DNA of 64,000 bases from an uncultured delta proteobacterium (GTDB taxonomy: Bacteria > Myxococcota_A > Polyangia > Polyangiales > B10-G4), in contig CAVSGI010000012.1 in NCBI GenBank assembly GCA_963727445.1, positions 1 through 64,000 of the forward strand, read 5' to 3'. Positions 6,991 through 56,644 of the stretch are shown here, piece by piece. The translations under genes and the position numbers were made by a program. The number at the start of each line of letters is the position of its first letter. The first letter of the stretch is position 1. The notes under the pieces were generated by a model. It did not search any database. It saw only the letters and a program-made list of their open reading frames with translations, and had not been told where the DNA came from.

Positions 6991-7003
6991 CTCGTCCTCC
7001 TTG

Positions 7004-8966: not shown

Positions 8967-8994
8967 GAGGTCACGAAGCAGCTTGGTTCATGAT

Positions 8995-9053
8995 ACTACC
9001 TCGAAACTCGGGCATCCGGTCAGGGGGTTGGCTTCCGTAGAGCCGGAAACCGG
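8995..9053 (-). repeat. 123-bp repeat family, diverged left half (copy 1)
   Basis: Minus strand CCGGTTTCCGGCTCTACGGAAGCCAACCCCCTGACCGGATGCCCGAGTTTCG. Confidence 0.85.
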
Positions 9054-9167
9054 ACGGGGCATGGCCCCGAACGCAAATCAACCACTCGGGAGAGAAGCCC
9101 GTTGTCACCCCGAGAGGGTGACATGCGTTCGTCTCGCATCGCGCCAAGGTGGGCGCTCCTGACGTTC

Positions 9168-13993: not shown

Positions 13994-14772
13994 GTATCCG
14001 TTCGACGGCCCCGTCCAGCAGCCTGGAAGAACTGGATGTTTCTCGGAAGCGACGACGGCGGGCGCGTGAACAGCATCTTCACGTCGCTGCTCGCGAGCGC
14101 GCGCATGGTCGGCGTCGAGCCGTGGTCCTACCTCCGCGACGTGCTGTGCCTGTTGCCCGACTGGCCCGTGCACGACCTCCTCGACCTCGCGCCCGTGAAC
14201 TGGCACGCGACCGTCGCGCGCGACGACGTCCAACGCATCCTCGACCTCAACCCGTACCGCGCGCTCACGCTCGGGGGCTGATCAGGCCGCCGACGAGCAG
14301 CCCGGCGCGGCGCAGGGACGGATGCGCTGAACGCTTACGACGGAATCATCGCCGATCCTCCGCGCCGTCGAGCGCGGTCATCACACGACGAAGCGTCTCC
14401 ACTTCGAAGCCGTCCGGGACGCGCACGACGAGTCGCGTTCCCACGACGAGCTCGATCGACGGCGCGGGCAACGCCGCCGTCACCTCCACGAACTTCGGCT
14501 TCGGGCGCGCGCGCCCCTTGGCTCGGTCACGACGCGGCCGAGCGAGCGATCTACCCGACGCCTCCTTCCCCAGCCGCCACTTCCAGTAGCTCAGTGTCCG
14601 CGCGTTGACCCCATCTCTGCGCTGAACTCCGCGGCCGTCAGCTGGCTGTCCTTCCACCGCTCCACTCGCTTCGCCCATTCCTGTCGTGACGTCTTCATCG
14701 GCGCCTCCTTTCGAGGGCCGATCGATCGCACAGGGCGGCTCAGGCTGCTGGACGGGGCCGTCGAACGGATAC
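13994..14772. mobile_element. IS66-family scar: two inverted left ends, a tnpC 3' fragment with right end, and a frameshifted tnpA
   Basis: Perfect 32-bp IR (13994..14025 / 14741..14772, GTATCCGTTCGACGG…). Right end …GAACGCTTAC at 14338. tnpC tail KNWMFLGSDDGG…EPWSYLRDVL at 14026..14281. tnpA MKTSRQEWAKRVERW…TLSYWKWRL at 14346..14698 (-). Confidence 0.85.
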
Positions 14773-14920
14773 CTCAACAACATGGCTGACAAGACGCCAG
14801 CTAAGATCACGTTGCGGGACTGGGTCGACCCGGTAGAGGGGATAAACGGTCGCGACATCCTTACCTTCGAGAAAAGGGAGGGATCTTGGGGGGTGTTCTT
14901 CTACCAGATCGACGAGGGCT

Positions 14921-15033
14921 CCGGTTTCCAGCCTCCACGGAAGCCAACCCCTTCACCGGACGCCCGAGTTTCCGAGAAGGAGCGATTACGTCGACTGCCA
15001 CCGCTGGCCCCACGGCAGGAGGCCGTTCATCCT
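14921..15033 (+). repeat. 123-bp repeat family, variant B (copy 2); tail cut by IS4
   Basis: Conserved left half, different central hairpin, ends GGAGGCCGTTCATCCT directly before the IS4 end. Confidence 0.9.
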
Positions 15034-16677: not shown

Positions 16678-17220
16678 ATGAGCGCGCCGCCGTCGGTATC
16701 GGCGGTCCGGCCGGCGCGCTGTCCGTGCTGCGGTGCGCCCGGCGCGGCCGCCGGGAGGCCGAAAGCGCTGGTCGGGCATGGGCTCAGGAGCCGGATCCTG
16801 CTCGGTCCGGCCAGCCCCGATGACCGTCCCGAGGTCGCGGCGCTCGAGGCCCGACGCTACCGATGCCGGCGGTGCGGGGCGATCGTCGTCAGCTTGCCGC
16901 GCGGCGTGCTGCGCCGACTTCGCTACACCGCCGTGGCCATCGCCCTCGCGCTCGCGATGTGGGTCGACGGGACGTCGAGCGCCGCAGTCCGCACCCGCGT
17001 CAGCCCCTTCGCCATCGTCGGCGACGACGCCATCCGCGGCTGGCGCTCGCTTCGCCGATGGGCACGTGCAGCCCGTCGGCTCTGGCCGCCAATCCGTCCT
17101 GCGCCCCACGCCTCGCCGCGACTGCTCGCGGCCGACGTCGTCCGCCAGCTCGCCGCGCTCGCGCCGCTGACGACCGGCGCCCTCGTCCGCGACGCGTGCG
17201 CCGGAGCGCTTCGATGCTGA
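16678..17220 (+). CDS. Zinc-finger accessory protein of the element
   Basis: CPCC and YRCRRCG motifs plus an HTH-like C-terminus, upstream of the transposase. Confidence 0.7.
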   Translation: MSAPPSVSAVRPARCPCCGAPGAAAGRPKALVGHGLRSRILLGPASPDDRPEVAALEARRYRCRRCGAIVVSLPRGVLRRLRYTAVAIALALAMWVDGTSSAAVRTRVSPFAIVGDDAIRGWRSLRRWARAARRLWPPIRPAPHASPRLLAADVVRQLAALAPLTTGALVRDACAGALRC

Positions 17221-17327
17221 GGGACATCGGGTGCGATCTCGCACGGATGCAGGGCCCACCACTCAGGGTCGTCGCGGTCGCCACGACCGCCGGTGCCTCC
17301 TCGGCCCTCGACCGAAAGGAGACACCA

Positions 17328-18656
17328 ATGACCGACAAGCTCAGTGCCAAAGACCACGCCGAGGCCGTCGCGCTCTTCCGCGCGCAGGTGATCGGGTCGC
17401 TCGTGTGCCGCGACGACCTGACGCACGGCGAGCTCGCCGAGGCGCTGCGCGAGCTCAGCGCGCAGCCCTTCCGTCCGCCCGGCGCCGACGTGAGCCGCAC
17501 GTACGCCATCTCGACGCTCGAGCGCTGGCTCTACCGATACCGAAAAGGGGGGCTCGGTGCGCTCGTCCCTCAGCGCCGCAGCGATCGCGGCCACGCGCAG
17601 GCGCTCGACGACGCGCAGAAGAAGCTGCTCGTCGCCATCCGCAAGGCGCACCCGCGCGTGAGCGCCGCGCTGATCTTGAGGACGCTCGTCTCGGACGGCC
17701 GTCTCGAGGCGGGAGTCGTCACCGAATCGACGCTCCGGCGTTTCTACGCCGAGCGCGGTCTCGACCGCCAGACGCTGAAGCACGCGGAGCACGGGCCGCG
17801 CCGCCGCTGGCAGTCGCCCCGGCCGAACGCGGTCTGGCACGCCGATGTCGTGCACGGCCCGGCGCTCCGCATCGCGGGCAAGAGCGTGCCGCTGCGCATC
17901 CACGGCATCCTCGATGACCACAGCCGCTACGTCGTGGCGATCGAGGCGTGCGCGACAGAGCGCGAGAGCGAGATGCTCCGGCTGATCGTCAAGGCGATGC
18001 GCCTGCACGGTCCGCCGGACGTGCTCTACCTCGATAACGGCGCGACGTACGTCGGCGACACGCTCAAGACGGCGTGCTTTCGCCTCGGTGTCGCGCTCGT
18101 GCACGCGCGTCCACGCGACCCGCAGGCGCGGGGCAAGATGGAGCGCCTGTGGCGGACGCTTCGCGAGCAGTGTCTGTCGCACCTGCACGAGCCCGCGTCG
18201 CTTCACGACGTGCAGCTGCGCCTGCTCGCCTGGCGCGACAAGCACTACCTCGTCACCCCGCACGGCTCGCTGATGGGCAAGACGCCCGCCGAGGTCTACG
18301 AGGCCTACGAGCCCGAGCACGTGACCGAGCCGATGCTGCGCGAAGCCCTCATCGTCCGCGGACGTCGCCGCGTCCGTCGCGACTGCACCGTCTCGGTCGC
18401 CGGCCGCGACTTCGAGGTCGCCCAGGGCTACCTCGCGGGGCGCCTCGTCACGATCGGCCGGTGCCTGCTCGACCCGACCGAGCCGCCGTGGGTCGAGCAC
18501 GAGGAGCAGCGCCTCGTGCTCAGCCCCGTCGACCCGACGAGCAACGCCCGACGTCGACGGACGGCCGAGCGACGACGCCGCGGCCTCGACGCCGTCGACT
18601 TCGACCCGCCGGGCGCGCTCCTCGCCGAGCTCACGAAGAAGGGCGGTCGCTCGTGA
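17328..18656 (+). CDS. DDE (rve) transposase, IS481/Mu-like
   Basis: RBS AAAGGAG; WHADVVHG, ILDDHSR, LYLDNG, GKMERLW. Confidence 0.9.
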   Translation: MTDKLSAKDHAEAVALFRAQVIGSLVCRDDLTHGELAEALRELSAQPFRPPGADVSRTYAISTLERWLYRYRKGGLGALVPQRRSDRGHAQALDDAQKKLLVAIRKAHPRVSAALILRTLVSDGRLEAGVVTESTLRRFYAERGLDRQTLKHAEHGPRRRWQSPRPNAVWHADVVHGPALRIAGKSVPLRIHGILDDHSRYVVAIEACATERESEMLRLIVKAMRLHGPPDVLYLDNGATYVGDTLKTACFRLGVALVHARPRDPQARGKMERLWRTLREQCLSHLHEPASLHDVQLRLLAWRDKHYLVTPHGSLMGKTPAEVYEAYEPEHVTEPMLREALIVRGRRRVRRDCTVSVAGRDFEVAQGYLAGRLVTIGRCLLDPTEPPWVEHEEQRLVLSPVDPTSNARRRRTAERRRRGLDAVDFDPPGALLAELTKKGGRS

Positions 18657-22319: not shown

Positions 22320-22429
22320 CGTGCGGACACCTCCGCGGCAGGTAGCCCGTCGGCCGCGTGGCTTGAGGCCGCGTGGCTTGAGAGGAAGTTCTTGTCGAGA
22401 ACGTGCGCCCTAGAACTCGCCGAGCAGCT

Positions 22430-22552
22430 CCGGTTTCCAGCCTCCACGGAAGCCAACCCCTTCACCGGACGCCCGAGTTTCCGAGAAGGTATGATCTGTC
22501 GACTCCCTGCCCGGCCGGAGGGGAGCGGAGGCCGTTCATGGTTACTACCCGC
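22430..22552 (+). repeat. 123-bp repeat family, variant A (copy 3)
   Basis: Full CCGG…CTACCCGC copy. Confidence 0.95.
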
Positions 22553-23067
22553 ACGCGGACGTCGAACGCCGTCGCCCCCTCTTCGTGGATCACGGCCTGG
22601 TTGCCGATCGTGAGGACGCGCGCGCCCGCGGCCCCCGTCGTCTCCACGCCTTGCGCCTCCGACGACGCGAGCGTCACGATCCGGTCGAAGAGGCCATCGA
22701 GCGCTCCCTCGAACGAGGCGGAGAAGCGCGCTGGCCCGTGGCCGATGACCAGCGTCTCGGTCTTCGAAAGAACCTCGCGGCTGATGTCGCCCTGGCTCCC
22801 GTACGTGGGAAACGGAAACTGAGCCATCGCCGCGTCCTCGAAGGGCGTTCCCCGGAGCACGGAAGGATGCACGACGAAGACCACCTCCACGTCCGAGGGG
22901 AGCCTCGAGACTGCGGGATCGTCGAGGCTCAGCCCCCGCGCAACCACCGGTCGCTCTTCGACGTGCGCCGTCTCGACCGGCGCCTCCACCGGCTGCGGCC
23001 TCGTCTCGGGAGCGCCGCCACAGCCGATGAGGAGGGACACCGCGACGACGACTGGACGGGTTCTCAT
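22553..23067 (-). pseudogene. Lipoprotein whose 3' end runs into repeat copy 3
   Basis: MRTRPVVVAVSLLIGC…AFDVRV, then repeat sequence. Confidence 0.7.
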
Positions 23068-23105
23068 CCGCGCGAGTCTAACTGAGGTTCGATCGCCGCG
23101 ACGCG

Positions 23106-23849
23106 TCACTCCAAGTCGATCACGACCCGGCGCAGAGCGTAGGCCTTCGCGGTGGGGACGAGGAACCGGCGGGCGGCTTTGCGGAACCAGCGGTGGAGGG
23201 CGTTGCTGTTGTACATCGTGCCCGGGCCGCGACCGCCCGACTGCGAGGTCGCGAGCTCGCGGCTGGTGACGATCAGGTCGTCGCCGGCCCACTTCGCGGT
23301 GGTGCGCCGGCACGCGCGCGACGCAGCGTGCGCGAGCATGGCGCGGGTCTCGTCGTCGAGCTCGACGGCCGGCGAGATGATCAGCCTGACCCGGCCCGTG
23401 AACTGGCGGTCGGCGGCGAGCGCGTGCAGGTAGGCGTCGCGGTCGAACGGGAACGGCAGGGCTGCGAGCCAGCGCCGCTGGCGCGTGGCGAGCAGCTTGG
23501 GGAGCAGGCGGAGCAGGACGTAGATGCTGCCGACGCAGACGGCCCCCGCCGTCGCGAACATGGAGAGCACGGTCAGGACGTTGATCGTGTCGACGATCCG
23601 AATCCAGACCAGGATGGTGCCGATCATCGAGGCGAAGCACAGGGCGATGCCGCCGACGCTGACCACCATGCCGGGCATCGTCAGGGCCAGGTCGATCGCG
23701 GCCTCGTCGTCATCGGAGTCGGACGACCGCCGCTTCGCCTTGGGCGGCTTCCAACCGCGGGCCAGCTTCTTCAGGTCGGCGCGGGCGGCGGCCCGCTCGG
23801 CGTTGTCGTCGGCGTCGTCGCTGTCACTGCCGGCGTGCCCCGCGCTCAT
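23106..23849 (-). CDS. Membrane protein with two TM helices
   Basis: 247 aa, strong GC3 bias, two hydrophobic segments. Confidence 0.8.
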   Translation of the reverse strand: MSAGHAGSDSDDADDNAERAAARADLKKLARGWKPPKAKRRSSDSDDDEAAIDLALTMPGMVVSVGGIALCFASMIGTILVWIRIVDTINVLTVLSMFATAGAVCVGSIYVLLRLLPKLLATRQRRWLAALPFPFDRDAYLHALAADRQFTGRVRLIISPAVELDDETRAMLAHAASRACRRTTAKWAGDDLIVTSRELATSQSGGRGPGTMYNSNALHRWFRKAARRFLVPTAKAYALRRVVIDLE

Positions 23850-24124
23850 CGCGCCATCGTATCAGCTCCCTCAGCACGTCGGGGAGGCACCCGCACTTCG
23901 CGGAGCGAATGACGAAATGACGAAGAGCGTCCCCAACACCCCCCAACATCGTCTCTTCAGGTCGGCGCGGGCGGCGGCCCGCTCGGCGTTGTCGTCGGCG
24001 TCGTCGCTGTCACTGCCGGCGTGCCCCGCGCTCATCGCGCCATCGTATCAGCTCCCTCAGCACGTCGGGGAGGCACCCGCACTTCGCGGAGCGAATGACG
24101 AAATGACGAAGAGCGTCCCCAACA
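23768..24124. repeat. 171-bp tandem duplication (period 186 bp)
   Basis: 23768..23938 is identical to 23954..24124. Confidence 0.95.
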
Positions 24125-24129
24125 TCGTC

Positions 24130-24363
24130 GCAGGCTGGACCACCGACGGCGCGATGTTCGACTCGTCGGTCGCGCGCGGTGAGCCGGCCGTCTTCCCCCT
24201 CAACGCGGTGATCGCGGGGTGGACGGAGGGCGTGCAGCTCATGGTGGTCGGAGAGACGCGCCGCCTGTGGATCCCCGAAGACCTCGCCTACGGCGGCGCC
24301 GCCGGCGCCCCCGCCGGCATGCTCGTCTTCGACGTCCAGCTGCTTCAGATCGTCGGTCGCTAG
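24130..24363 (+). pseudogene. C-terminal fragment of an FKBP-type peptidyl-prolyl isomerase
   Basis: GWTTDGAMFDSS…VIAGWTEGVQLMVVGETRRLWIPEDLAYG…LVFDVQLL. Confidence 0.85.
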
Positions 24364-24411
24364 GGAGCTTGCCAATCTCAGCGCGCGTACAATCAGGGCC
24401 CCAACAGCGGG

Positions 24412-24520
24412 GGGGACAAACTCGGGGACGGGGGGAAGCCAGGGGGACGCTGCCGAACTTTCCGAACTTTTCGAAGCCAACAAGTTCGGAAAGTTCGGCA
24501 GCGTCCCCGTTGTGTCCCCC
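24412..24520. repeat. REPIN-like palindrome
   Basis: Perfect 27-bp arms 24443..24469 / 24482..24508 (GGGGACGCTGCCGAACTTTCCGAACTT), with an outer GGGGACA/TGTCCCC pair. Confidence 0.85.
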
Positions 24521-24532
24521 GAAAGTTCGGCT

Positions 24533-24646
24533 CCGGTTTCCAGCCTCTACGGAAGCCAACCCCTTCACCGGACGCCCGAGTTTCGCAGTAGGAGCGATTA
24601 CGTCGACCGCCGCCCCTGACTCCACTGCGGGAGGCCGTTCATCCTC
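24533..24646 (+). repeat. 123-bp repeat family, variant B (copy 4); right end approximate
   Basis: Conserved left half, then AGGAGCGATTACGTCGAC…GAGGCCGTTCATCCTC as in copy 2. Confidence 0.9.
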
Positions 24647-25121
24647 GTTCACCCTTCCTATCAGCTAGCCAACCCGGACTGCAATGGAACGCACGGCGTC
24701 TGGGTGAACACGGGACAGGCGCCCTCGGGTTGTTCGACCAACCTGGACGGCACGGCCATCCGCGACACCGAGCTGCAACCGGTGCATCTTCCATCCCGAA
24801 GTGTGGTGGACTCCGGCTCACCCACCCTCCACCAACGCACCCTCGAAACCCGAACACTCGCCGCAGTCCTCGATCTCCGCGACCGCGACCGGCGATCACG
24901 AGTCCGATATCCCCATAGCCCCCGCCGACGCTGGACTGCCGCGAACCGGCTCGACTCAAACACGTTTCGACTGACCGCGGGCGAAACAGCCGCTCGTCGA
25001 GCAGCAGTGCCTTCACGCCCGCGCTCCGCCGAAACCTCCCCAATCTGTCGACTGGCGTCCTGGCCCGAAAGGAGCGAAGGCCGCTCATCGTGACTATCCC
25101 CCGATGGGCCTCACCTGCGCG

Positions 25122-25736
25122 TCACTGGGGTACGCCGAGCTGCTCGGCGAGATCGAGGAGCTTCTGGACCTGATCGCTCAGTGCTTGGGGATTCTTGGGA
25201 AACGTCGTGCTGCCTCGCACGAGATTCCCCATCTCGAGCCGACCACCGTCTTGCATGAACGCGAGGAACGCGGAGAGGACCTCGGGACGTTTGAGACGCT
25301 TCTTCATGCCTTTGTGTACGTCCGAAACGACATACCGCCCGTCGATCTCGGCGATGCCCGTCCCCTTGCGCCCCTTGGATCCGTAGTCGCGGTGTTGGGG
25401 CGCGAGGGGATTGGCCGGCGCGATCGTCATCGAGCCCGGACGACCGCGCGGCGCGACCCGGATCTCGTAGTAGCGATAGATGCTATTGCCCTGCCCCGGG
25501 CGCTGCAGCGTGGTCCAATGAATCCTGACGTCGTGGCCGTCCGAGGTGTAGCCATTGACCTCGCTCGCTTGAGGGGTCCGACTGATGTCCGCCGACAATC
25601 CGAAGTGTCGGGCGACGGCGTCCAAGTTCGCGTTCCATCGTTGGCCCGTGCGCCATGAGCTATAGAGGCCCGCGATGACCAGAGCCACGGCGAGCGCAAT
25701 CCCGATCCCCACGTACATGGTGGTGGCGAAATCCAT
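25122..25736 (-). CDS. Hypothetical protein with N-terminal TM helix
   Basis: 204-aa ORF with hydrophobic N-terminus. Confidence 0.7.
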   Translation of the reverse strand: MDFATTMYVGIGIALAVALVIAGLYSSWRTGQRWNANLDAVARHFGLSADISRTPQASEVNGYTSDGHDVRIHWTTLQRPGQGNSIYRYYEIRVAPRGRPGSMTIAPANPLAPQHRDYGSKGRKGTGIAEIDGRYVVSDVHKGMKKRLKRPEVLSAFLAFMQDGGRLEMGNLVRGSTTFPKNPQALSDQVQKLLDLAEQLGVPQ

Positions 25737-25881
25737 GGAAGACCCCGGGCACTATATCAGCCGCTGAGCGGCCTGGGCCGACATGAAGCGCCTGACACTT
25801 CGAGGTCGGCTACAATCGAGGCCTCGATGCGCGACGGCGCCGAAAGCACGGTCACCACGTCCTCTCTTACCCACGTCGGCT

Positions 25882-26004
25882 CCGGTTTCCAGCCTCCACG
25901 GAAGCCAACCCCTTCACCGGACGCCCGAGTTTCGCAGTAGGTATGATGTATCGACTCCCTGCCCGGCCGGAGGGGAGCGGAGGCCGTTCATGGTTACTAC
26001 CCGC
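25882..26004 (+). repeat. 123-bp repeat family, variant A (copy 5)
   Basis: Full copy. Confidence 0.95.
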
Positions 26005-26095
26005 AACGAGATGATCACGCTTTCACGACACGTGAACGGTTACGCACGGCTCGTGTCGACGGCCTGCTCAAGATCTTCACCTTGTACTGCGTGCC

Positions 26096-26392
26096 TCACT
26101 CACGAGGCACCGCCCCATACGGCTCGTAACAACAATTCGGGTGAACACAATACGGATGGTTGTCGAAGGCCGGGCCGCAGATGATGTCCGTATTGGGACA
26201 GCACACGAAGCCGTCCTCGCACGCGACTATCCCGCCACACAGGCATGGTAAGTCTGCGCCTGCATCCTGACATACGCCGGCATCGACGCTGCCGTCCAAA
26301 GGAGGGTCGTGGTGCTCGCCGCACGCGGCGAGGAGCGACACCACGGCGATCACAGCCGCACCAAGTACGGTCAAGGTGTGGGACTGATCCAT
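26096..26392 (-). CDS. Small Cys-rich lipoprotein
   Basis: MDQSHTLTVLGAAVIAVVSLLAAC plus DAG repeats and a Cys cluster. Confidence 0.7.
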   Translation of the reverse strand: MDQSHTLTVLGAAVIAVVSLLAACGEHHDPPLDGSVDAGVCQDAGADLPCLCGGIVACEDGFVCCPNTDIICGPAFDNHPYCVHPNCCYEPYGAVPRE

Positions 26393-26709
26393 GCTGCATG
26401 CAGTTGAGGTGTGGTTGGGCCTTCCATCCAAGCAAAAAGGTACTGGGGTCCCCCTCCGGGCCCATTGGTCCCAAATGGCGCGCCCTCGATATAGTCTCCG
26501 AAGTAGCCGAACCTTCCTTCGAATGGCGGATTGCCCAACCTCGGCGCTGTCCCAAGCCAGATCGTTGTATTGCGAGGACACGGTGTACACGTTCCATAGC
26601 TTGCCCTCGGGATCGTCCCGCGTATCGTACCATGTGAGCACCAGGTGATCGTCGGGAAGGCCACCAACGCCGGCGCGATTGCGCGCGAGTGCAGGTAGAA
26701 AGGCGTCGC
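26371..26709 (-). pseudogene. C-terminal part of a sialidase/BNR-like beta-propeller protein
   Basis: GDAFLPALA…LVLTWYDTRDDP, then after a frameshift GYFGDY…LFAW. Confidence 0.6.
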
Positions 26710-26832
26710 CCGGTTTCCAGCCTCCACGGAAGCCAACCCCTTCGCCGGACGCCCGAGTTTCGCAGTAGGTATGATGTATCGACTCCCTGCCCGGCCGGAG
26801 GGGAGCGGAGGCCGTTCATGGTTACTACCCGC
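26710..26832 (+). repeat. 123-bp repeat family, variant A (copy 6)
   Basis: Full copy. Confidence 0.95.
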
Positions 26833-27197
26833 AGCGGGTCGAGGGCTTTTCGCCTGCGTGGGACTGGACCCGCGCCTACTCGGAGATCAACGACTTCGAG
26901 GAGACGCTCGTCGAAAACGGCGTCGTCGTGGTGAAGTTCTGGCTGCACATCGACTCCGAGGAGCAGCTGCGCCGTTTCGAAGAACGAAAGCGCGTGGCCT
27001 TCAAGCGCCACAAGATCACCGACGAGGACTGGCGCAACCGCGAGAAGTGGCAGCCCTACGAGCTCGCGGTGCACGACATGGTCGAGCGGACGAGCACGGA
27101 GATCGCGCCGTGGACGATCATCGCCGCGAACGACAAGCGCCACGCGCGCGTGGCGGTCGTCGAAGCGCTCGACGACCAGATGGAAGCGGCCTTTTAG
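26833..27197 (+). pseudogene. ppk2: 3' fragment of a polyphosphate kinase 2 family gene
   Basis: RVEGF…AYSEINDFE…VKFWLHIDSEEQLRRF…KITDEDWRNREKW…APWTIIAANDKRHAR; starts at the repeat edge. Confidence 0.9.
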
Positions 27198-27198
27198 A

Positions 27199-27921
27199 TC
27201 ACTGCGCGAAGATCTCGACGTTCCCCTCGCTGTAATGAAGGCCATCGTCTCGAAACTGGATGATCGCTCGCATCGATCCGCTGGGGTGGCCCGAGGGGTC
27301 GGCGTGCTCGATGTTCAGCATCAGCTCGCTGGCAGGATGTAGCCCCGCTTCGAAGGCGGCCTTCGCGTCGGCGCACGTCGCGCTGCTGTTCATTCCCGTC
27401 GCGTACGGAAGGTCGCAGTCCGACTCCACGATCGCGCGGCGCACGCGCTCCATGGCCGCCACCACGGCAGGGGCATGCGCAGCGGCCGCCTCGCTGATCG
27501 GCGGATAGTAGGCCCCGGGACCAAACGACGTCGTAACCCCTTCGTAGCGCAGCGTCCCGTCCGGAGACACCATCGCCTGAACGCTCACGTGCTTCGTATC
27601 CGATCCCTGCTCGTTCGGACTGAACTGCAACAGCAGCGAGCGCTTCGAAACCGGGATCAACATGATCGGCGTCGAGTTGCTGTTCTCCGACAGCCCCGGA
27701 AGCGGGTGCTCCCCGGCGAATGCAGCGCGAAGCGCGGCGTGCTGCTCTACGATGAAGTCTCGTAGCGCCACGTCTTCGGGAGCCAGCGCAGGCTCGGGAG
27801 GCGCGGGGGGGGCGACGGGCGCGGGAGGCGGCGGGGCGACGGGCGGCGTGGCTACCTGCTCGTCGTCGCCACATCCGGCGGTCGTGATCAGCAGTCCGAG
27901 GACCAAGAGGGGACGGTACAT
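27199..27921 (-). CDS. Lipoprotein with Pro-rich linker
   Basis: MYRPLLVLGLLITTAGC, PPVAPPPP. Confidence 0.75.
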   Translation of the reverse strand: MYRPLLVLGLLITTAGCGDDEQVATPPVAPPPPAPVAPPAPPEPALAPEDVALRDFIVEQHAALRAAFAGEHPLPGLSENSNSTPIMLIPVSKRSLLLQFSPNEQGSDTKHVSVQAMVSPDGTLRYEGVTTSFGPGAYYPPISEAAAAHAPAVVAAMERVRRAIVESDCDLPYATGMNSSATCADAKAAFEAGLHPASELMLNIEHADPSGHPSGSMRAIIQFRDDGLHYSEGNVEIFAQ

Positions 27922-27983
27922 GGAGGCCGACATAGCGGATCTCGATGCCATCCGACAATGGGACCCCAGATGGGGAGGGTGCT

Positions 27984-28446
27984 CTACTGTCCGAGCGCGC
28001 ACTGTGCTGCTTCGCGCACGCGCGGTTCGGGATCGTGGGCGGCCGCGCGCGAGAGCGCGGCACGCGACGCACCACCGCCGAGCGTTCCGAGCGCTCGCGC
28101 CGCCGCCTGGCGCACGAAGGCGTAGTCGTCTCCGACGAGTGCTTCCTCGAGGGCGCCCCGCCCTTCGTCGCCCCCGACCCGTCCGAGTGTTTCGGCAGCG
28201 AGGGTGCGCAGCGCCCAATCGCCGTGGGTGCGGAGGATCGCGGCAACCCGGGGAACCGCCGCGGTGTTGCCAGCGGTCAACGTGGAGAGCGCAGCGCGGA
28301 GCACCAATGACTCGTCGTCGTCGAGCGCCGTCGCGACGACCTGATACGCGTCGGGATCGTCGAAGCGGGCGAGGAGCTGCACGGCCAGAGCGCGGACCTG
28401 CGCCCCGGGATGACGGGCGACGGTCAGGAGCTCGGGGAGGAGGGCT
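27984..28446 (-). pseudogene. 3' fragment of a HEAT-repeat protein
   Basis: VRALAVQLL, LRTLAAETLG, VRQAAARALG and VREAA repeats; the frame is open up to the repeat edge with no start. Confidence 0.85.
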
Positions 28447-28569
28447 CCGGTTTCCAGCCTCCACGGAAGCCAACCCCTTCACCGGACGCCCGAGTTTCGC
28501 AGTAGGTATGATGTATCGACTCCCTGCCCGGCCGGAGGGGAGCGGAGGCCGTTCATGGTTGCTACCCGC
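28447..28569 (+). repeat. 123-bp repeat family, variant A (copy 7)
   Basis: Full copy. Confidence 0.95.
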
Positions 28570-29000
28570 CTGGGGTATTGCCAGTCGAGCTTGTGGGGTC
28601 GAACGCCATGGCCTGCATGTCCTGATCCCCGGCCGAGCATCCCTTGTCATCGTTCACTTGGACGCTCCTCACGAAGGTTCGGCCGCCATCAAACGACAGG
28701 GCAGCGACGATCATGTCGGGGTGCTCGGTGACAGGCCGATTGATCGAGTGGGCGAGGTTCGTTGCCACCACAATGCCGGGCTGGGAAGGATCTGCATCGA
28801 TGTCCGGATCTCCGCGCCACGTCTGTTGAACGAGGCTACCTGCTACACTTCGCACCCGGATGTCGCGAATCCCACCATTGCACACCGCTCCCGATTGCGA
28901 TGTGGTGGTTGCCAACGAAAACGGCTCTGAAGTCAGCCGGGCTGTGAAGCTCAGAGTCGGTGCGGTAGGTTGCGGATGCCGAGGCTCGCCGAAGGGTAGG
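28570..29000 (-). pseudogene. Upstream part of the BNR-like protein
   Basis: GDPDIDADP…Asp-box SFDGGRTF…VND…GDQD. Confidence 0.65.
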
Positions 29001-29002
29001 CG

Positions 29003-29311
29003 ATGGGCTACCAGTACAAGCTCGACGTGACACCAGGAGTCCTGGACCTGGGCGCCATCTGCGATTCGGTGGTGGCGTCGACAGCCTGGATCCGTATCCC
29101 AACGTCGTTCTCCGATGGCGTCGGCATCGGGGTCGGCGACTCGACAATCGATCCGAATTCGTCGTGGCCGCACATTGCAGACCTGCGCTTGGAAGCCCCG
29201 ACCTCTATCCACGTCCTCTGCCACACTCAGACAGGGGGCCTCTTCATGCACGCTCTTGTCCAAGCGCTTCGGGACAAAGGGCACGTCGTCGTCATCGACG
29301 ACGACGTGTAG
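29003..29311 (+). CDS. Small hypothetical protein
   Basis: 102-aa ORF with plausible RBS and composition. Confidence 0.5.
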   Translation: MGYQYKLDVTPGVLDLGAICDSVVASTAWIRIPTSFSDGVGIGVGDSTIDPNSSWPHIADLRLEAPTSIHVLCHTQTGGLFMHALVQALRDKGHVVVIDDDV

Positions 29312-29981
29312 TGGCGTGTTGTACCGCCTCGTGCTGCGCCAGCCCGAGGTGGTGGCCACGCTGGGCTACGTCAAGTGCGGGCGCCGCAGGCCGGAGGTGC
29401 TGACGCGCACCGAGGTGGCCGCGCTGCTGGCCGCCTTCACGTCGGTCGTGCACGAGACGCTCGCGATGCTCTGCTACGGAGCGGGCCTTCGCGTCAGCGA
29501 GGCGGTCAAGCTGCGCATCGCCGACGTGCACAGCCATCGCGGGGTGCTCTTCATCGCCTTCGGCAAAGGCGGCAAGCAGCGGGAGGTCCCTCTGAGTGAG
29601 AGGCTGCTCGGCCAGCTTCGTCACTACTACCGGCAGCGCCGGCCGCATGGCCCGTACTTGTTTCCCGGTCGCTCGGGACGGCCCCATCTGACCCGCAGCG
29701 CCCACTGGATCGCCGTGCGCAAGGCGCGGGCGCGCGCCGGGTTGTCCAAGCGCGTCAGCCCGCACTGTCTGCGTCACAGCTACGCGACGCATCTGCTCGA
29801 GGATGGCGTCGACATCCGAACGGTGCAGGCACTGCTCGGTCACGCCACGATCGAGACGACGGCCTGGTACCTCAGCGTCAGCCGCGAGCGGATGCGGCGC
29901 GTGCCCAGTCCGCCGCGGACACAATACGGGGTGCGTGGAGGGCTCCGGGTCCGACTAAACAACGGGCTCGGGGCACCATAG
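29312..29981 (+). pseudogene. Tyrosine recombinase (XerC/D-like) catalytic domain, N-terminal domain missing
   Basis: YGAGLRVSE, GKGGKQR, HCLRHSYATHLLE, LLGH…TTAWY: full R-K-H-R-H-Y set; no IntI-type insertion. Confidence 0.85.
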
Positions 29982-30185
29982 CGGATACGACCTCTACGCC
30001 GACCTCACCAGGGTACCCGTTTCCGAAATCCGGGGTCGCCCGGAGGGCGGTGGACGACTAAACATAACCAGAGGTTCATGTTACCTCGCCGCCCGGCCGG
30101 AGCTCCGTGCGAGACAGCCGGCCGGTCATGCCGCTTGCATCACGCGGAGCGTGAAGTGCGTGGGCAAGCGGCCCGCCCAGCCGGC

Positions 30186-30647
30186 TCAATCAGCCGAACG
30201 AAGCGCGATCCGCTCCCAGCGAGCGCGGATTCCCTCGCAGTCGCTGTAGTCAGCCTCTCGGTACAACCAGATCAGTGTGTCCACAAAGGCGCGCGGGTTC
30301 TTCACGACTCGAAGTCCCTCGATGCGGCACACGACGCGACCTCGATCTGCTTTCGCGGAGCTTCTGAGGTAGACGTTGACGTGCTGCGACTCACGGACCT
30401 CCACGACTACATAGGGCGAAGATGGCTTGCTGAAGCTCAGGCTGAGGAAGTCCCCATCGGCTTCGTCCTCCTCCTTCGTCGCCGACAAGTCGCCGATGAA
30501 TCGGATCTTCTTTCGCTTAGTCGAGAGGAGCGACCATACGTCCTCCACGAACGCGTCCGAGAATCTGATATCCAAGTCCGTCTCAAGGCATTCACTGGTT
30601 AGCGTCTCATGCCACCCGTGTGGGGATTGTGAGCGGGTAGTAACCAT
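30186..30647 (-). CDS. Hypothetical protein; in-frame ATG lies in the tail of repeat copy 8
   Basis: MVTTR-SQSPHGW…DIRFSDAFVEDVW…; an internal TTG start is also possible. Confidence 0.55.
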   Translation of the reverse strand: MVTTRSQSPHGWHETLTSECLETDLDIRFSDAFVEDVWSLLSTKRKKIRFIGDLSATKEEDEADGDFLSLSFSKPSSPYVVVEVRESQHVNVYLRSSAKADRGRVVCRIEGLRVVKNPRAFVDTLIWLYREADYSDCEGIRARWERIALRSAD

Positions 30648-30765
30648 GAACGGCCTCCGCTCCCCTCCGGCCGGGCAGGGAGTCGATACATCATACCTAA
30701 TCATACCTACTGCGAAACTCGGGCGTCCGGTGAAGGGGTTGGCGTCCGTAGAGGCTGGAAACCGG
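30633..30765 (-). repeat. 123-bp repeat family, variant A (copy 8) with internal 10-bp duplication
   Basis: ATCATACCTA occurs twice in tandem. Confidence 0.95.
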
Positions 30766-30781
30766 AGAGCGAACTGCCCTT

Positions 30782-31075
30782 CTAAGGGTCGATTGACATG
30801 CCGCAGATACCCACTCTGTCCGAGCAAGCGAGGGAGCAACAGTCTTCATTGACGGTGCATGGCTCGTCCATGCCCCGACACGCCGTGTCGGCAGTGGTGC
30901 TGTCGGCAAAGACGTCGTCCGCGCCTCCGTCGAGATTGGCATCCTCCGAGCCGCTGTCGGTGTCGGCTGTCGCATCGATGCCCCCATCGACGGGCGTCCG
31001 ACTGCTAGAACAGCTCCACAACAACAGGGCGAGCACGACAATCCATGTGTATGCGCTACAGCGGGTGGTAACCAT
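30782..31075 (-). CDS. Small Cys-rich lipoprotein; start codon supplied by repeat copy 9
   Basis: MVTTR-CSAYTWIVVLALLLWSC…CTVNEDCCSLAC. Confidence 0.65.
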   Translation of the reverse strand: MVTTRCSAYTWIVVLALLLWSCSSSRTPVDGGIDATADTDSGSEDANLDGGADDVFADSTTADTACRGMDEPCTVNEDCCSLACSDRVGICGMSIDP

Positions 31076-31127
31076 GAACGGCCTCCGCTCCCCTCCGGCC
31101 GGGCAGGGAGTCGATACATCATACCTA
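31061..31127 (-). repeat. 123-bp repeat family, right half (copy 9), abutting an IS4 end
   Basis: TAGGTATGAT…ACCCGC on the minus strand. Confidence 0.95.
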
Positions 31128-32143
31128 CATTCGTGTTCGGATAAGCGGCTGCGACTGTCGAGAAGGTTAAGCAATTCCAATTGGTTGAGCCCTGCGCGCG
31201 CTCCGTGATCGAAAAGAGCCACCGCTTCTGATCTCCTACGGGTGTCTAAGTCCAAAGGAGGGAAGCGATGGCTCGCCGCAAGCCTAGCCACATTCATCGA
31301 GCGCTGACCAGCGTGTTGCCGCGTCGTCGGATCCGGGAGCTGTCTCGCCGGCTGGGAGTCGTTCGACGCCGGCGCAAGGTTGATATCGTGTCGCTGGTGT
31401 ACGGGTTGCACAACGCGCTCGAGCACTCGTATCCATCGGTGTTCACCCACTACATGAAGGCGTCCGCGAAGCTCGGCGTGGTGATGAATGTCGTCGGCCG
31501 CGGCGCGAAGACGATTGCCATCACGCACGGAAGCCGCCACGACAAGCACCTGCTTCAGGCTGGCGCGTGGATGCGAGGGCGCCTCTTGCTCTTCGACCTC
31601 GGCTTCTACCGCGCCTCGCTCTTCGAGCAGATCGACGCCCACGGCGGTTACTTCCTCACCCGGATGAAGAAGCAAGGCAACCCGGTGCTCGTGCGCAGTC
31701 ATCTGCGAGCGCATCGCCATCTCGTCGGAATGAAGCTCCGCGATGTCCAGCAGATCGTCGACACCGACGTCATCGATGTCGACGCCAAGATGGTGTAGCA
31801 GCGCCGTCATCGACACAGGCCGCTCGTCACGAACCACTACGCCTGTTTCCGCTGCGTCGCCCTGTACAACCACGAGCTCGACCAGTGGCATCGATACGTG
31901 ACGAATCTGCCGGCGGACCTCCTCGAGGCCCATTACTTCGCGGCCGTCTACGCCGCACGCTGGGAGGTGGAGTCGCCGACGATCTCCTCGCGCTCGTCCT
32001 GTCGCGCCGAGACCGCTCGGCGCGCGCACGACGCATCGAACACTTCCTGCGCGCCGAGGCCCAAGACCCCAACGCCGCGAGAATCCCTTTGCCCTACAGG
32101 ACTCAGACGGGCACCCATCCGTGGCCTTAGGCGATCACGAATG
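31128..32143 (+). mobile_element. Internally deleted IS4-family element
   Basis: TIRs CATTCGTGTTCGGATAAG and (reverse) CATTCGTGATCGCCTAAG; transposase remnants LFDLGFY and YAARWEVE with an internal stop at 31796..31798. Confidence 0.85.
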
Positions 32144-32198
32144 TAGGTATGATCTGTCGACTCGCGCTTCCGGCGGGAGTGGCGGGAGGCCGTTTGTG
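32144..32198 (+). repeat. 123-bp repeat family, right half, variant C; tail continues at 33610..33621
   Basis: TAGGTATGATCTGTCGAC…GGAGGCCGTTTGTG, then after IS110 CCATCTATCCAC. Confidence 0.85.
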
Positions 32199-32214
32199 AT
32201 GGCTTCTGTGAAGC

Positions 32215-32480
32215 GGCCACCCCGGTCAACAGGTTTGTCTGATTTTCGTTCTACGTCGTTGCACGTCTCCTTCGCCTCGGCTCGGGTTCGTCGTTTCGCT
32301 CATACGTGACGGGTTGTTCAGCCTTCTGTTCGCGCTCGACTGGGGCGGCATCGAGGCCGCGGCGCAGGGTGGGATTCGGTGGTGGTCGGCGCCATCTATC
32401 CATCGGCGTTCGACAGCAGCCAGCCAGCACATCGCGCTCGACCACCATAATCGGTTCCCTTCACGAAGAGCGGGTCATCG
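32215..32480 (-). ncRNA. Candidate bridge/seek RNA of the IS110 element; boundaries unknown
   Basis: Contains GCCATCTATCCA (32391..32402), equal to the reconstructed target, and CTTCTGT (32323..32329), equal to the element end. Confidence 0.6.
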
Positions 32481-32491
32481 TCGGTTGCGGG

Positions 32492-33523
32492 TCAGGCTGC
32501 AGCAGCCTCCTCACGGCTCGCTGTCGCCTCGAAGCGCGTCCCGTCTCGCCACATCGCGTACAAGATCCCCGCGAGCTTGCGCGCCAGCGCCACCGCCGCG
32601 ATCCGCTTGCCGCGGCGTGCGGCGATGCGCTCCGTCCAGTCGCGTAGCGCCTTCGTCTCCGGTCGTTTGTGACGCAAGATCCCCCAGGCCGCTTCGACGA
32701 GCAGCGACCTGAGACGGCGATTGCCGGTCTTCGTGATGTGGCCCCGCATCCGTTTTTCGCCAGAGCTCAGCTCGCGGGGCACCAGGCCGAGGTAGGCGCG
32801 CACTTGTGAGGCGTTGTGGAAGCGACCGATCTGGTCGACCACGGCGACGAAGGTCACCGCCGTCACCGGCCCGATGCTCGGCACGGTGCACAGGCGTTCG
32901 ACGGTCTCGTCGCCCTTGGCGAGCTCGGCGAGGCGCTTGTCGGCGTCGCGGATCTGCATGGTGAGCTGCTCGAGCATCGTGAGCAGCGGCGCGACCTCGA
33001 GCGCCAGGTGGGCGGGCAGTGACAGCTCCTCGATGCGCGCCGCGAAGGTCGCCGCTCCGCCGCTTCGTGGCGACAAGCCCTCGCGCCGCACAAGCGCTCG
33101 GGTGAGCGAGATGTACTTCGTTCGCGTGCGCACCAGCGCATCACGCACCGCGACCTGCGCTCGCCGATGACGGGCCGCGTCCGAGGCGCGGTGCGCTGGG
33201 CGGTACGCGCCGAGCCGGCAGGCGTCGCAGAGCGCCCGCGCATCGCGCCGGTCCGTCTTCACCTTGCGGCTTCGCGTGGCATACATCGGCGCGAAGTTCG
33301 GGTCCGCCACGATCACCTCATGGCCCAGCTCCTCGAGCCACCGCGCCACCCACTCGCTGTCCGTCGACGCCTCCATCAGGATCTTCGCCCGGGCGCGGTC
33401 CGCGAACACCTTCGCCAGCGCATCGCGCGTCGTCGCCACGCGCCGCTCCCGCAGCTCTCCCTCGCTCGTCTGGATGCAGACCTGACTTGTCTTCTTGTGA
33501 ACATCGATGCCAATGTGTTCCAC
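32492..33523 (-). CDS. IS110-family DEDD recombinase/transposase
   Basis: IGIDVHK, MEAS, KTDRRDA; C-terminal YLGLVP…SSGE…ALARKLA. Confidence 0.95.
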   Translation of the reverse strand: MEHIGIDVHKKTSQVCIQTSEGELRERRVATTRDALAKVFADRARAKILMEASTDSEWVARWLEELGHEVIVADPNFAPMYATRSRKVKTDRRDARALCDACRLGAYRPAHRASDAARHRRAQVAVRDALVRTRTKYISLTRALVRREGLSPRSGGAATFAARIEELSLPAHLALEVAPLLTMLEQLTMQIRDADKRLAELAKGDETVERLCTVPSIGPVTAVTFVAVVDQIGRFHNASQVRAYLGLVPRELSSGEKRMRGHITKTGNRRLRSLLVEAAWGILRHKRPETKALRDWTERIAARRGKRIAAVALARKLAGILYAMWRDGTRFEATASREEAAAA

Positions 33524-33629
33524 GGCTGGCCTCCACTCTGCGGCTCTTGACCGCGTTTACGGTTGTGGGGCTACGGCTACCACGTCAGTGGCGGCCAGCC
33601 GCTTACATCCCATCTATCCACCCTTTGGG

Positions 33630-36131: not shown

Positions 36132-36238
36132 CCGTCCGACAGGCGGCGCAGGGCTCGGGAAGGAGCGATTGGAGCGGCTCCGACACGAAGAGAGGGTGAC
36201 GCGAGTGCGCACGGAGGTCGAGGGTGTAGGCGGGAGCC

Positions 36239-36298
36239 CCGGTTTCCAGCCTCCGCGGAAGCCAACCGCCTCCCCGCATGCCCGAGTTTCCGAGAAGG
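36239..36298 (+). repeat. 123-bp repeat family, diverged left half (copy 10)
   Basis: CCGGTTTCCAGCCTCCGCGGAAGCCAAC…CCCGAGTTTCCGAGAAGG. Confidence 0.85.
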
Positions 36299-47454: not shown

Positions 47455-47505
47455 GTGGATAGATGGGATGTAAGCGGCTGGCCGCCACTGACGTGGTAGC
47501 CGTAG
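47455..47505 (+). mobile_element. Orphan IS110 left end plus repeat tail
   Basis: 51 bp equal to the reverse complement of 33571..33621. Confidence 0.9.
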
Positions 47506-47628
47506 TTGATAGATGGCGTGAACGGCCTTCCGCCATCCTCCCGCGAGCCAGGGGCTACATCATCGCTCCTACCGCGAAACTCGGACGTCCGGTGAAGGGG
47601 GTTGGCTTCCGTGGAGGCTGGAAACCTG
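47505..47628 (-). repeat. 123-bp repeat family, variant C (copy 11)
   Basis: Conserved left half; tail GGCCGTTCACGCCATCTATCAAC. Confidence 0.9.
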
Positions 47629-47657
47629 AGCCTCCGGTGCGCGTCCGTCAGCTGGGC

Positions 47658-54691: not shown

Positions 54692-54817
54692 GTTGATAGC
54701 CGCCATGAACGGCCTTCCGCCACTCCCGCCATCGGGCGCGCGCGACAAAACACTCCTACTTCTCGGAAACTCGGACGTCCGGTGAAGGGGTTGGCTTTCG
54801 TGGAGCCTGGAAACCGG
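54692..54817 (-). repeat. 123-bp repeat family, variant C (copy 12)
   Basis: Conserved left half; tail GGCCGTTCATGGCGGCTATCAAC. Confidence 0.9.
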
Positions 54818-55132
54818 AGTTTCAGGAACTGACGGTTCCTGCGCCCTTTCGCGCCCGGCGCCTACCCGGCGACGGACAGGACGCGTAGGGTGGAGGGTGA
54901 CCTCGGAGGTTCTGTCCGCCATTCGGACACAACCCGAGCGCGAGTGGCGAACGCCAGGAGTTCTGTCCGTCTTGGGGACAGGACTCGTGACGTCGAGGTC
55001 GACGTCGGCACTTCCGTTCGTCGACTCAGGTCACGTCGACGAATGCGTCTGCGCGGCCGGGAGATCGAATCGTCGCCCCGAGTGGTCAGTCGAGTGGACC
55101 CGCGCGCGTCCACGAAACAACGGAGGCATTTC

Positions 55133-56265: not shown

Positions 56266-56603
56266 TCAATACCCGGCGAGCCGATACAGCCGCGCGCAGA
56301 TCGAATCGAGTCGTGGATTGAATCGGGTGACGATCTCGTCGGGGATGTACCCGAGGGCCGCCGCCGTCTCGAGGGCGACCCTCACTTCCTGGGTCGAGCC
56401 CAGCGCGATGTCGAAGTGCTTGCGGCGATTGCCGCCCCGCATCGCATTCCCTTCGCCCTGATTCAACGCGCTGCTCGTCGCGGCCCGCTCCAGCTGGTCC
56501 GCCAGCTTCGCGTTCCGCTTCTTCAGCCGCGCAATGACCGGCCGAAGCTCACGAATGATTTGGATCGTATCCCGAAGGACCTGAGGTGCGTGGTGTTGCT
56601 CAT
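56266..56603 (-). pseudogene. Four-helix-bundle (23S-IVS/bAvd-like) protein, frameshifted just after the ATG
   Basis: LADQLERAATSSALNQGEG…FDIALGSTQEV…GY. Confidence 0.8.
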
Positions 56604-56644
56604 ACCCCCCATGAGCAACACCACGCACCTCAGGGTCCGATCAC

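Follow-up and report, generated by a model that had tools for sequence, protein, structure and literature searches.

Layout of the locus

We analysed a stretch of 64,000 nucleotides from an uncultured delta proteobacterium of the order Polyangiales (lineage B10-G4), covering positions 1 to 64,000 of contig CAVSGI010000012.1 in assembly GCA_963727445.1 and called the window hereafter. The assembly comprises 9.47 Mb in 27 contigs with 66-70 % G+C and a completeness of 85.6 %. Contigs are numbered C5, C9, C10, C11, C12, C20, C21 and C24, the window being C12:1-64000. Subject of this study is a short repeat whose copies lie at the seams between kilobase-sized pieces of unrelated, often truncated genes. 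This repeat is very probably the 3' terminal region, containing the origin end (oriIS), of an ISCR-like rolling-circle insertion sequence (IS) of the IS91 family, and it is present at the seams mostly as transposase-less miniatures.

An earlier note on this DNA had reported near-identical copies of ~123 bp. Repeat finding and an alignment of 13 copies confirmed such a family, with a length of ~127 nt and two modules per repeat. Module A (~59 nt) reads GCTCCGGTTTCCAGCC...GAGTTTCGCAG, module B (~68 nt) starts with TAGGTATGAT, continues with a variable segment and ends with GGAGGCCGTTCATGGTTACTACCCGC. The copies and partial copies in the window are as follows.

22427..22552, + strand: copy 1, an origin-end miniature with module A, a TAGGTATGAT-like junction and a module B ending CTACCCGC
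24530..24665, + strand: copy 2, with a variant right module (B2) ending CCTTCCTATCAGC, the variant nearest to the oriIS motif of ISCR1 and ISCR2
25879..26004, + strand: copy 3, the reference copy
26708..26832, + strand: copy 4, the ppk2 fragment beginning at the following base
28444..28569, + strand: copy 5, its left edge being the end of the HEAT fragment
30633..30768, - strand: copy 6, inverted, with a tandem 10-bp duplication of TAGGTATGAT at the A|B junction
31061..31127, - strand: module B alone; a lipoprotein-type signal peptide that starts at 31060 is in frame with its ATG
32144..32204, + strand: module B' only, module A being absent; it is broken off 6 nt short of its end, and the final 6 nt (ATCCAC) lie at 33616-33621
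8989..9056, - strand: module A, then TATCAT and a second IS110-type element whose N-terminus reads HIGIDVHKKT
14917..15033, + strand: truncated copy, a B2 module without the terminal motif
36236..36298, + strand: truncated or diverged copy
47455..47632, - strand: copy at 47519-47632 with a 51-nt remnant of an IS110 end (47455-47505)
54692..54819, - strand: complete, diverged copy ending CTATCAAC

Five copies in the same (+) orientation lie within 22427-28569, at intervals of 2103, 1349, 828 and 1737 nt; the segments between repeats in general measure 0.3-2.1 kb. Three window copies were mutually 98-100 % identical in the repeat finding and alignment. In the copies at 24529 and 14917 a close match was confined to the left 64 nt, the right module being a variant. 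The middle of module B, 25-30 nt between GTCGAC and GGAGGCCGTT (e.g., window 25950-25975), is entirely different among otherwise similar copies; at least eight variants were distinguished by eye, and four full-length elements of ~95 % identity, described below, each carry a variant of their own.

A blastn search of the whole assembly with the reference copy yielded 45 matches at E<=1e-3: 13 on C12, all of them within the window, seven on C21, six on C20, five on C11, four on C9, three each on C24 and C5, and one each on four further contigs, a clustered distribution across the genome. A looser pattern for the terminus detected 16 complete ends genome-wide, seven of them inside the window. The repeat was not found in the 40 relatives searched, one of the same genus. 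A known RNA family or a CRISPR array was dismissed, with no Rfam family at gathering score in the whole window and spacers that are not short and uniform. The tRNA scan of the window found none, and a scan for sigma-70 promoters in 25700-28700 returned no sites. TATGAT, found at the A|B junction, is similar to the -10 element in the outward promoter of ISCR1 (TAAGAT, as given in PMC6218425), with no support for a promoter function. A role of the GGAGG-N5-ATG of the repeat as start codon for downstream genes was rejected as well: only 2-3 of ~26 motif matches enter a long open reading frame (ORF), a number compatible with chance.

Relation to ISCR-like elements

The identity of the repeat was derived from its flanks. 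Comparison of the 1.5 kb to the left of 36 copies revealed four that continue into a common element over at least 1.74 kb with 90-97 % identity (C10:589950, - strand; C24:9421, - strand; C9:926386, + strand; C5:177562, - strand). Full-length copies have a size of ~1.77-1.86 kb and are ordered as follows: a GC-rich terminator (ter) end, a gene for a Y2/HUH transposase, 88 nt, module A, the junction TAGGTATGAT, and a module B that ends GGCCGTTYRT...CTAYCMRC. The 487-amino-acid ORF of the element matches the Pfam models Y2_Tnp (4e-24) and Zn_Tnp_IS91 (1.4e-17), and its best NCBIfam model is ISCR_clade_Ia (2e-99). The transposase encoded on a Sandaracinus plasmid is 46 % identical to this protein, those of ISVsa3/ISCR2 and ISCR1 are 42 % and 40 % identical, respectively. 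In a tblastn search of the genome the transposase was found at four loci only, plus one scrap of 34 amino acids on C20; it is intact on C10, nearly intact on C24, frameshifted on C9 and fragmentary on C5. In all four loci the repeat follows the transposase gene, in the order stop codon, 88 nt, module A and module B, and thereby occupies nt 88-215 after the stop codon, where the oriIS of ISCR1 and ISCR2 is located.

The terminus of the C10 element lies 211 nt past the stop codon; those of ISCR1 and ISCR2, read from two plasmid records, lie 233 nt past theirs. For comparison, PMC6218425 gives the oriIS region of ISCR1 as 232 bp and its oriIS side as variable, PMC2725981 places the oriIS of ISCR2 ~240 bp downstream of the gene, and oriIS is defined in PMC9376610 as the 3' boundary of ISCRs. 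The aligned termini read GGCCGTTCATCCTTCCTAC for the C10 element (its end was also given as GGCCGTTCATCCTTCCTACCAGC), GGCGTTTATTCTTCCTATAC for ISCR2 and GGTGGTTTATACTTCCTATACC for ISCR1; in the terminal motif, GTTCATCCTTCCTAC is the counterpart of GTTTATTCTTCCTAT and GTTTATACTTCCTAT. A search of the 9.47 Mb on both strands for GTTYATNCTTCCTAY, the motif shared by all three, gave a single occurrence, at the C10 terminus, while a back-of-envelope estimate at this base composition expects ~0.02 occurrences by chance. Window copies carry more diverged versions of the terminus (…GTTCATGGTTACTACCCGC). The likeness needs this degenerate motif: the exact 17-mer of ISCR2, with up to three mismatches, had no match in locus L011 and the window.

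Neither terminal inverted repeats nor target-site duplications had been noticed in the earlier note, and inspection of the flanks of 36 copies, and of the junctions against a paralogous locus on C20, agreed. IS91 elements lack both according to PMC13181058. A transposon of the DDE type with the repeat as its miniature inverted-repeat transposable element (MITE) was rejected on these two features.

A similar 3' end was present in another myxobacterial genome. The nearest relative among 78 examined transposase loci, L025 in a metagenome-assembled genome (MAG) of the Myxococcales, encodes a transposase of 51 % identity, and its 3' end is built alike (...CGCAGAAGGAATGAT...GGCGGTTTGTGTGGCCTAT, also read as …CTTCGCAGAAGGAATGATATGTAACC…GGCGGTTTGTGTGGCCTAT). 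The last ~80 nt of this element occur with a shared left border at 13 further places in its genome. One of these copies is broken after GATGAT by an end that resembles the IS4-type element of the window. A similar end, CATCCGTGATCGG, follows the same junction at L111 (G041:C21:11706-11751) in a myxobacterial genome other than that of the window. Relatives in Gammaproteobacteria end …TTCTTMCTAACC(G/A/C)C (...CTAACC(G/A/C)C) and continue into differing flanks. The 3' end of L025 and its solo copies therefore point to the module as the native origin end of this ISCR-like lineage and to solo ends as a habit of the lineage. As a separate observation, the complete chromosome of a Pseudomonadales MAG (OZ254080.1, 363-392 kb, L045-L048) carries four co-oriented ISCR-like transposase genes, whose starts are 7998, 7268 and 7268 bp apart; this looks like a tandem array of ISCR plus cargo.

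Miniatures and read-through

Most copies are miniatures of 123-137 nt that lack the transposase and consist of the origin end only. Three long copies have the right end in common, their left ends all being different. The C24 element has a GC-rich palindrome at the left end. The C9 element (C9:924649) begins just past the stop codon of a gene for a four-helix-bundle protein of the 23S_rRNA_IVP type, and the C10 element, located at an unrelated locus, carries 74 extra nt that are the 3' end of this 23S_rRNA_IVP gene. The gene also occurs without the element, at C9:917 kb and in the window:

56269..56640, - strand: 23S-rRNA-intervening-sequence (four-helix-bundle) gene, the unoccupied counterpart of the C9:924649 site

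A solo copy at C21:15722-15851 has as its right flank (…ATTCGCGCGCGATCAGTTTCCCCGGG) the sequence normally found 3' of the four-helix-bundle gene; this flank and the left flank of C9:924649 are the two halves of one kind of target site on different contigs.

Read from the sequences, a fixed right end combined with varied left ends is the signature of one-ended (read-through) transposition. Such events, in which neighbouring DNA is carried along, are described for IS91, IS1294 and IS801 (PMC13181058, PMC3189936), and PMC3189936 reports right-end miniatures of IS801 with 229, 360 and 679 nt that were mobilised in P. syringae. By the established mechanism of the family, the transposase of the intact C10 copy would nick at the right end, and replication would displace the strand leftwards until it halts at ter or a look-alike. 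An early halt would give rise to miniatures, a read-through would carry neighbouring DNA along. The window is an IS-rich, gene-poor island where co-oriented miniatures have piled up, each of them now marking a seam of unrelated, truncated sequences.

Several points weigh against an assignment of the repeat to the origin end of an ISCR-like element and its arrangement at the seams. No conserved tetranucleotide follows the right end; A is the first base in about half of the copies, the rest being mixed. IS91, IS801 and IS1294 need GTTC or CTTG abutting oriIS, a need that is not established for ISCRs. The terminal CMRC has to be counted among the bases of the element itself, because the C20 paralogue has GTGG at that place. 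As single-stranded DNA the repeat folds no better than shuffled sequences (z 0.46 for the + strand, 1.57 for the - strand). The variable middle part can pair in several variants but likewise does not exceed shuffled sequences (folding z mostly from -1.3 to +1). In full-length copies a left stem, (C)GTCCGG...CCGGAC(G), attains a z of about -3. IS91 ends have two subterminal palindromes; here these are seen only weakly. The left end of the solo copies, GCTCCGG, constant in most of them, is two bases off its counterpart in full-length elements (CCGTCCGG), hence the solo copies are no fresh truncations but form a separate lineage. The segment order is that given by the assembly. Finally, rolling-circle transposition of any ISCR is still without experimental demonstration according to PMC6218425 and PMC9376610.

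Against these points stand the transposase attached to the repeat in four of four loci and the homologous terminus, and we hold the oriIS assignment to be highly probable. The earlier note had not recognised the repeat as a described element and had named the end of a known IS as the competing identity; it is the latter that we found, in form of the oriIS end of an ISCR-like element. The GCT noticed before several copies is present, as part of the left end of the element itself (GCTCCGG...) and not of the flank.

Other insertion sequences in the repeat

The repeats serve as insertion sites for several other elements. Two of them lie next to each other in the window.

32205..33615, - strand: IS110-family IS of 1411 bp with the transposase gene at 32495-33556, inserted at the CT in ...GATGGCT^ATCCAC
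31128..32143, strand not assigned: IS4-family element X with the ends CATTCGTG.../...CACGAATG and a transposase fragment at 31250-31795 (+ strand), located between two inverted B modules

The stretch of 1479 bp at 32143-33621 recurs with 90-99.9 % identity on C9 (twice), C11, C21 and C24. The borders of the IS110-family element were set by comparison with the uninterrupted repeat C9:926386 (…GATGGCTATCCAC), which puts the IS between CT and ATCCAC, at a distance of 6 nt from where module B ends. The position in the B module was the same in seven of eight copies examined; at the eighth (C11:5160-6585) the site shares only TGTGATGGCT and ATCCAC (10+6 nt) with the repeat. C9:929212-930622 is among the copies outside the window. 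The uninterrupted copy C9:926386 and the C11:5160-6585 site ruled out that the repeat is itself the end of the IS110 element (32205-33615). By its NCBIfam name the encoded protein is an IS110-family RNA-guided transposase. A non-coding stretch of ~290 nt downstream of the transposase gene could encode a guide RNA; there was no Rfam match.

The IS4-family element inserts after the 10-bp A|B junction TAGGTATGAT. A 281-bp piece of element X with 99 % identity is joined to a repeat at C20:65351-65631. Ten-base duplications of the junction were observed in the 30633 copy (copy 6), at C5:177562 and at C20:108786; the one in copy 6 is probably a footprint or a target duplication of the IS4-type element. 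The position of element X between inverted B modules is impossible by a single insertion and therefore indicates recombination. The second IS110-type element is also located at the TAGGTATGAT junction, at 8995 and at C20:105267. The origin end is a preferred target of other elements, for the IS110-family element at CT and for the IS4-family and the second IS110-type element at TAGGTATGAT. To our knowledge, for which the literature was not searched, the oriIS end of an ISCR-like element is undescribed among the targets of IS110 elements.

Three further IS-related regions were seen in the window. An IS21-type pair is encoded at 6256-8593 (IstA-like with rve and Mu-transposase C domains, and IstB); its probable insertion site is the second IS110-type element after the 8989-9056 copy. 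Fragments of IS66 and rve type are located at 13964-14278 and 16824-18653.

Segments and broken genes between the copies

Of the stop-to-stop frames between 20.3 and 35.6 kb that reach 75 codons or more (108 in total), only seven matched a Pfam model at E<=1e-3: FKBP_C, PPK2, HEAT repeats, a phage-integrase-type recombinase, a DDE transposase fragment, an IS110-family transposase and, weakly, Big_5. The broken genes bordering the repeats are listed here together with the recombinase gene.

22553..23130, - strand: lipoprotein-like ORF (MRTRPVVVAVSLLIGC...), its 3' end running into copy 1
26833..27193, + strand: ppk2 fragment covering positions 105-223 of the 229 in Pfam PPK2, with 94 % identity to C20:608449-608809
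27977..28442, - strand: HEAT-repeat gene fragment without 5' end, 81 % identical to C20:607926-608392
28586..28828, - strand: fragment of an Asp-box (BNR-like) protein, residues 119-196 of the 470-amino-acid homologue P0001
29031..29978, + strand: XerC/D-like tyrosine recombinase gene, a neighbour of the array and probably not part of the repeat system

The junctions of ppk2 and HEAT, which the earlier note had seen cut exactly at repeat edges, were confirmed. A diverged paralogous locus, C20:607926-608809, carries both genes adjacent to each other without repeats, and homology to it begins at 26833 and stops at 28442-28445, in full agreement. The ppk2 fragment has no in-frame start codon before 26928. 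Inspection by eye likewise upheld the cuts in the lipoprotein ORFs: the one with a lipobox (LLIGC) enters the repeat at 22553, and the signal peptide with LLWSC begins at 31060. Of the BNR gene thought to be cut at 26709 and 28570, one part was verified, 28586-28828 matching P0001, while 26005-26709 had no significant match to this homologue. About 190 residues are absent between the two pieces, if they are homologous at all, thus this is not one gene cleanly split. A single clean insertion of 26710-28569 into the BNR gene, its length being a multiple of 3, was rejected, P0001 showing the pieces as non-adjacent. The 693-amino-acid ORF of a relative (L021) was too distant to inform this question, and further pieces of the BNR-like gene are found on C11 and C5.

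A search of the assembly for donors of the cargo retrieved only the diverged ppk2-HEAT paralogue and an unrelated repeat of 208 bp (24805-25012). The latter, inside the cargo, is 97.6 % identical to C20:101359-101566 and partly to C20:106832-106912, a short dispersed repeat. A perfect direct duplication of 171 bp (23768-23938 and 23954-24124, 15 bp apart) lies within the ORF that ends in the FKBP_C domain. Outside of the array, the window contains a perfect tandem duplication of 148 bp x2 at 53508-53803 and, at 57003-59715, two adjacent paralogous Band_7/SPFH genes with 78 % identity over a stretch of 267 nt.

Origin of the array

On this sequence evidence, simple independent insertions of the repeat are excluded at least for the ppk2 and HEAT junctions. 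Removal of nine solo copies or of ten repeat-to-repeat blocks never restored an ORF rich in G+C at third codon positions across the junction. In the controls, such ORFs spanned the junction at 99 out of 300 genomic points and at 25 out of 300 chimeric joins, all chosen at random. The test is weak (P ~0.03 for nine copies); its outcome agrees with repeats as seams and not as simple insertions.

We lean towards the view that the seams arose mainly from homologous recombination and deletion between co-oriented copies, together with the activity of other ISs. This route would start with numerous insertions in the same orientation into dispensable, IS-rich island DNA, later reworked by deletions, exchanges and inversions. 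The inverted B modules around the IS4-type element and the scattered BNR pieces support this route, and for IS801 Bardaji et al. (PMC3189936) attribute most genomic fragments to reorganisation rather than transposition. A second route is possible, to which we give clearly less credit: the element itself would have built the array, its origin ends, with weak terminators, being read through and units of cargo plus origin end, or sandwiches, being inserted serially, maybe at existing ends, into a head-to-tail array in the manner of ISCRs or Helitrons. The full-length copies do show read-through, 74 nt of a neighbouring gene having been carried to C10. On C9 and C24, too, co-oriented arrays of origin ends occur to the right of the full-length element, the window contains seven of the genome's 16 complete ends, and an ISCR28 "sandwich" of two oriIS around a gene is cited in 10.1101/2025.01.22.634252. 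However, rolling-circle transposition is replicative, yet no donor copy of cargo plus repeat is present in the assembly, which is 85.6 % complete. By eye, none of the right-hand flanks examined opens with GCTC or TGGCG, the bases at the left end of the element, whereas fragments mobilised by IS801 do begin with its left-end tetranucleotide, as reported in PMC3189936. Element X between inverted B modules and the dispersed BNR pieces also indicate recombination. The two routes can coexist.

The IS91/ISCR family is the textbook bacterial case of mobilising neighbouring DNA. A still wider proposal is that solo oriIS ends form a general device for shuffling gene fragments, with nicking in trans, read-through of weak terminators, landing at existing ends and head-to-tail growth; we regard it as doubtful. 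The earlier note had proposed a new system that picks up arbitrary DNA and stacks it between repeats, comparable to CRISPR arrays or IS26 translocatable units. What stood of this is the repeat as the active end of a mobile element at the seams of unrelated, truncated DNA. The capture system did not: nothing shows that the repeat brought the cargo, and recombination and deletion explain the seams equally well.

Alternative explanations of the repeat

The order of the segments could be an artefact of an assembly in which the contig was threaded through the common 127-nt repeat from separate loci. Several contigs do begin or end in repeat clusters or in the 1.4-kb IS110 element (the first base of C24 lies within the IS, that of C21 at 106 nt from a copy), therefore the assembler had difficulty there. 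Against this, the copies at 22427, 24530, 26708 and 28444 each have private differences, so that reads can link their flanks, and the junctions between repeat and flank would be real even if the order were wrong; the genes cut at repeat edges would stand. We consider an artefact improbable.

Even less probable is an independent chromosomal repeat, similar to repetitive extragenic palindromic (REP) sequences or MITEs, which is merely targeted by several ISs, the ISCR-like one included. At least three other IS types insert at fixed positions in the repeat, and solo copies are far more numerous than transposase-linked ones, as such a repeat would have it. These counts are opposed by a terminus that carries the oriIS motif of ISCR1 and ISCR2 at the expected distance from the transposase stop codon, by the presence of the repeat in all four transposase loci, and by the homologous 3' end beside the 51 %-identical transposase in the other genome. 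The repeat is not a conserved host repeat either, because it was not found in the 40 relatives, one of the same genus.

Least credible is a role of the repeats as sites of the tyrosine recombinase at 29031-29978, either in an integron-like manner or in the way the Int of GIsul2 acts on CR2 units. Between the gene and the end of a repeat there are 462 nt, on C11 a fragment of a paralogue has a half copy at a distance of ~300 nt, and an integrase that mobilises an ISCR-related unit is known (PMC9376610). The protein, however, scores 149 bits in the integron-integrase model TIGR02249 against a cut-off of 265, the best models being XerD/XerC, and no such gene is present at the repeat clusters on C9, C24, C21, C20 and C5. 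The neighbour conserved in both recombinase loci is the BNR-like gene and not the repeat, which has no attC-like fold (z 0.46/1.57). That canonical attC boxes are missing had been stated before; neither boxes nor an attC-like fold were found.

Comparison with known systems

The closest counterparts are ISCR1 and ISCR2/ISVsa3. They share with the element described here a Y2/HUH transposase with the zinc-binding domain of IS91 (40-42 % identity), an oriIS ~210-230 nt downstream of the gene with a homologous terminal motif, the lack of inverted repeats and target duplications, variable unrelated DNA abutting the oriIS side, and neighbouring DNA carried on the ter side. Whereas ISCR1 and ISCR2 are harboured by clinical Gammaproteobacteria, the element described here resides in a myxobacterium, a placement with which the nearest transposase relatives agree, and gene fragments take the place of resistance genes as cargo. 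The terminus is richer in G+C with a hypervariable middle of 25-30 nt, and most copies lack the transposase.

The IS801 miniatures of P. syringae pv. phaseolicola, as described in PMC3189936, are likewise non-autonomous origin ends with variable or premature left ends, often beside truncated genes, and the same source reports their mobilisation in trans. Ours are shorter (123-137 nt), form a family of their own with one fixed left end (GCTCCGG), are piled up in the same orientation in one island and lack a consensus of flanking tetranucleotides. The ISCR28 sandwich (Yuan et al. 2024, as cited in 10.1101/2025.01.22.634252) has the same arrangement of oriIS, cargo and oriIS in direct orientation; there, according to that source, an intact resistance gene lies by an ISCR remnant, whereas the window shows a series of five ends separated by broken genes. 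Helitrons, following PMC4778049, resemble the element in the HUH and rolling-circle logic, the read-through of the terminator and the capture of gene fragments, but are eukaryotic and use a Rep-helicase transposase; in the window capture is only a candidate reading.

Integron attC arrays are also made of co-oriented repeats of ~60-140 bp with kilobase-sized segments and a tyrosine recombinase gene nearby. In the window, an integrase of IntI grade and an attC-like fold or boxes are missing, the genes are truncated and not whole and promoterless, and an IS91-family element physically ends in the repeat. Elements of the IS110/IS1111 family target repeated sequences such as REP, attC and the ends of Tn21. 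The 1411-bp IS conforms to this habit, its insertions sharing a single orientation and position (CT) and lacking inverted repeats and duplications; its target differs in being the oriIS end of an ISCR-like element.

Implications

The repeat array becomes annotatable as an oriIS end with defined borders, an autonomous partner, and parasites of the IS110 and IS4 types. For genome annotation a warning follows: ORFs bordering these repeats are fragments. ISCR-type elements are documented beyond the clinical resistance context, and read-through transposition is visible in a myxobacterial genome. Origin-end miniatures can be the commonest form of such an element and mark seams of rearrangement. If the capture reading is true, the system would offer a tractable bacterial model for Helitron-like shuffling of gene fragments. 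If even solo ends act as a general shuffling device, this would be a prokaryotic counterpart of Helitron capture, and the architecture of the second myxobacterial genome would reflect the same recurrent mechanism.

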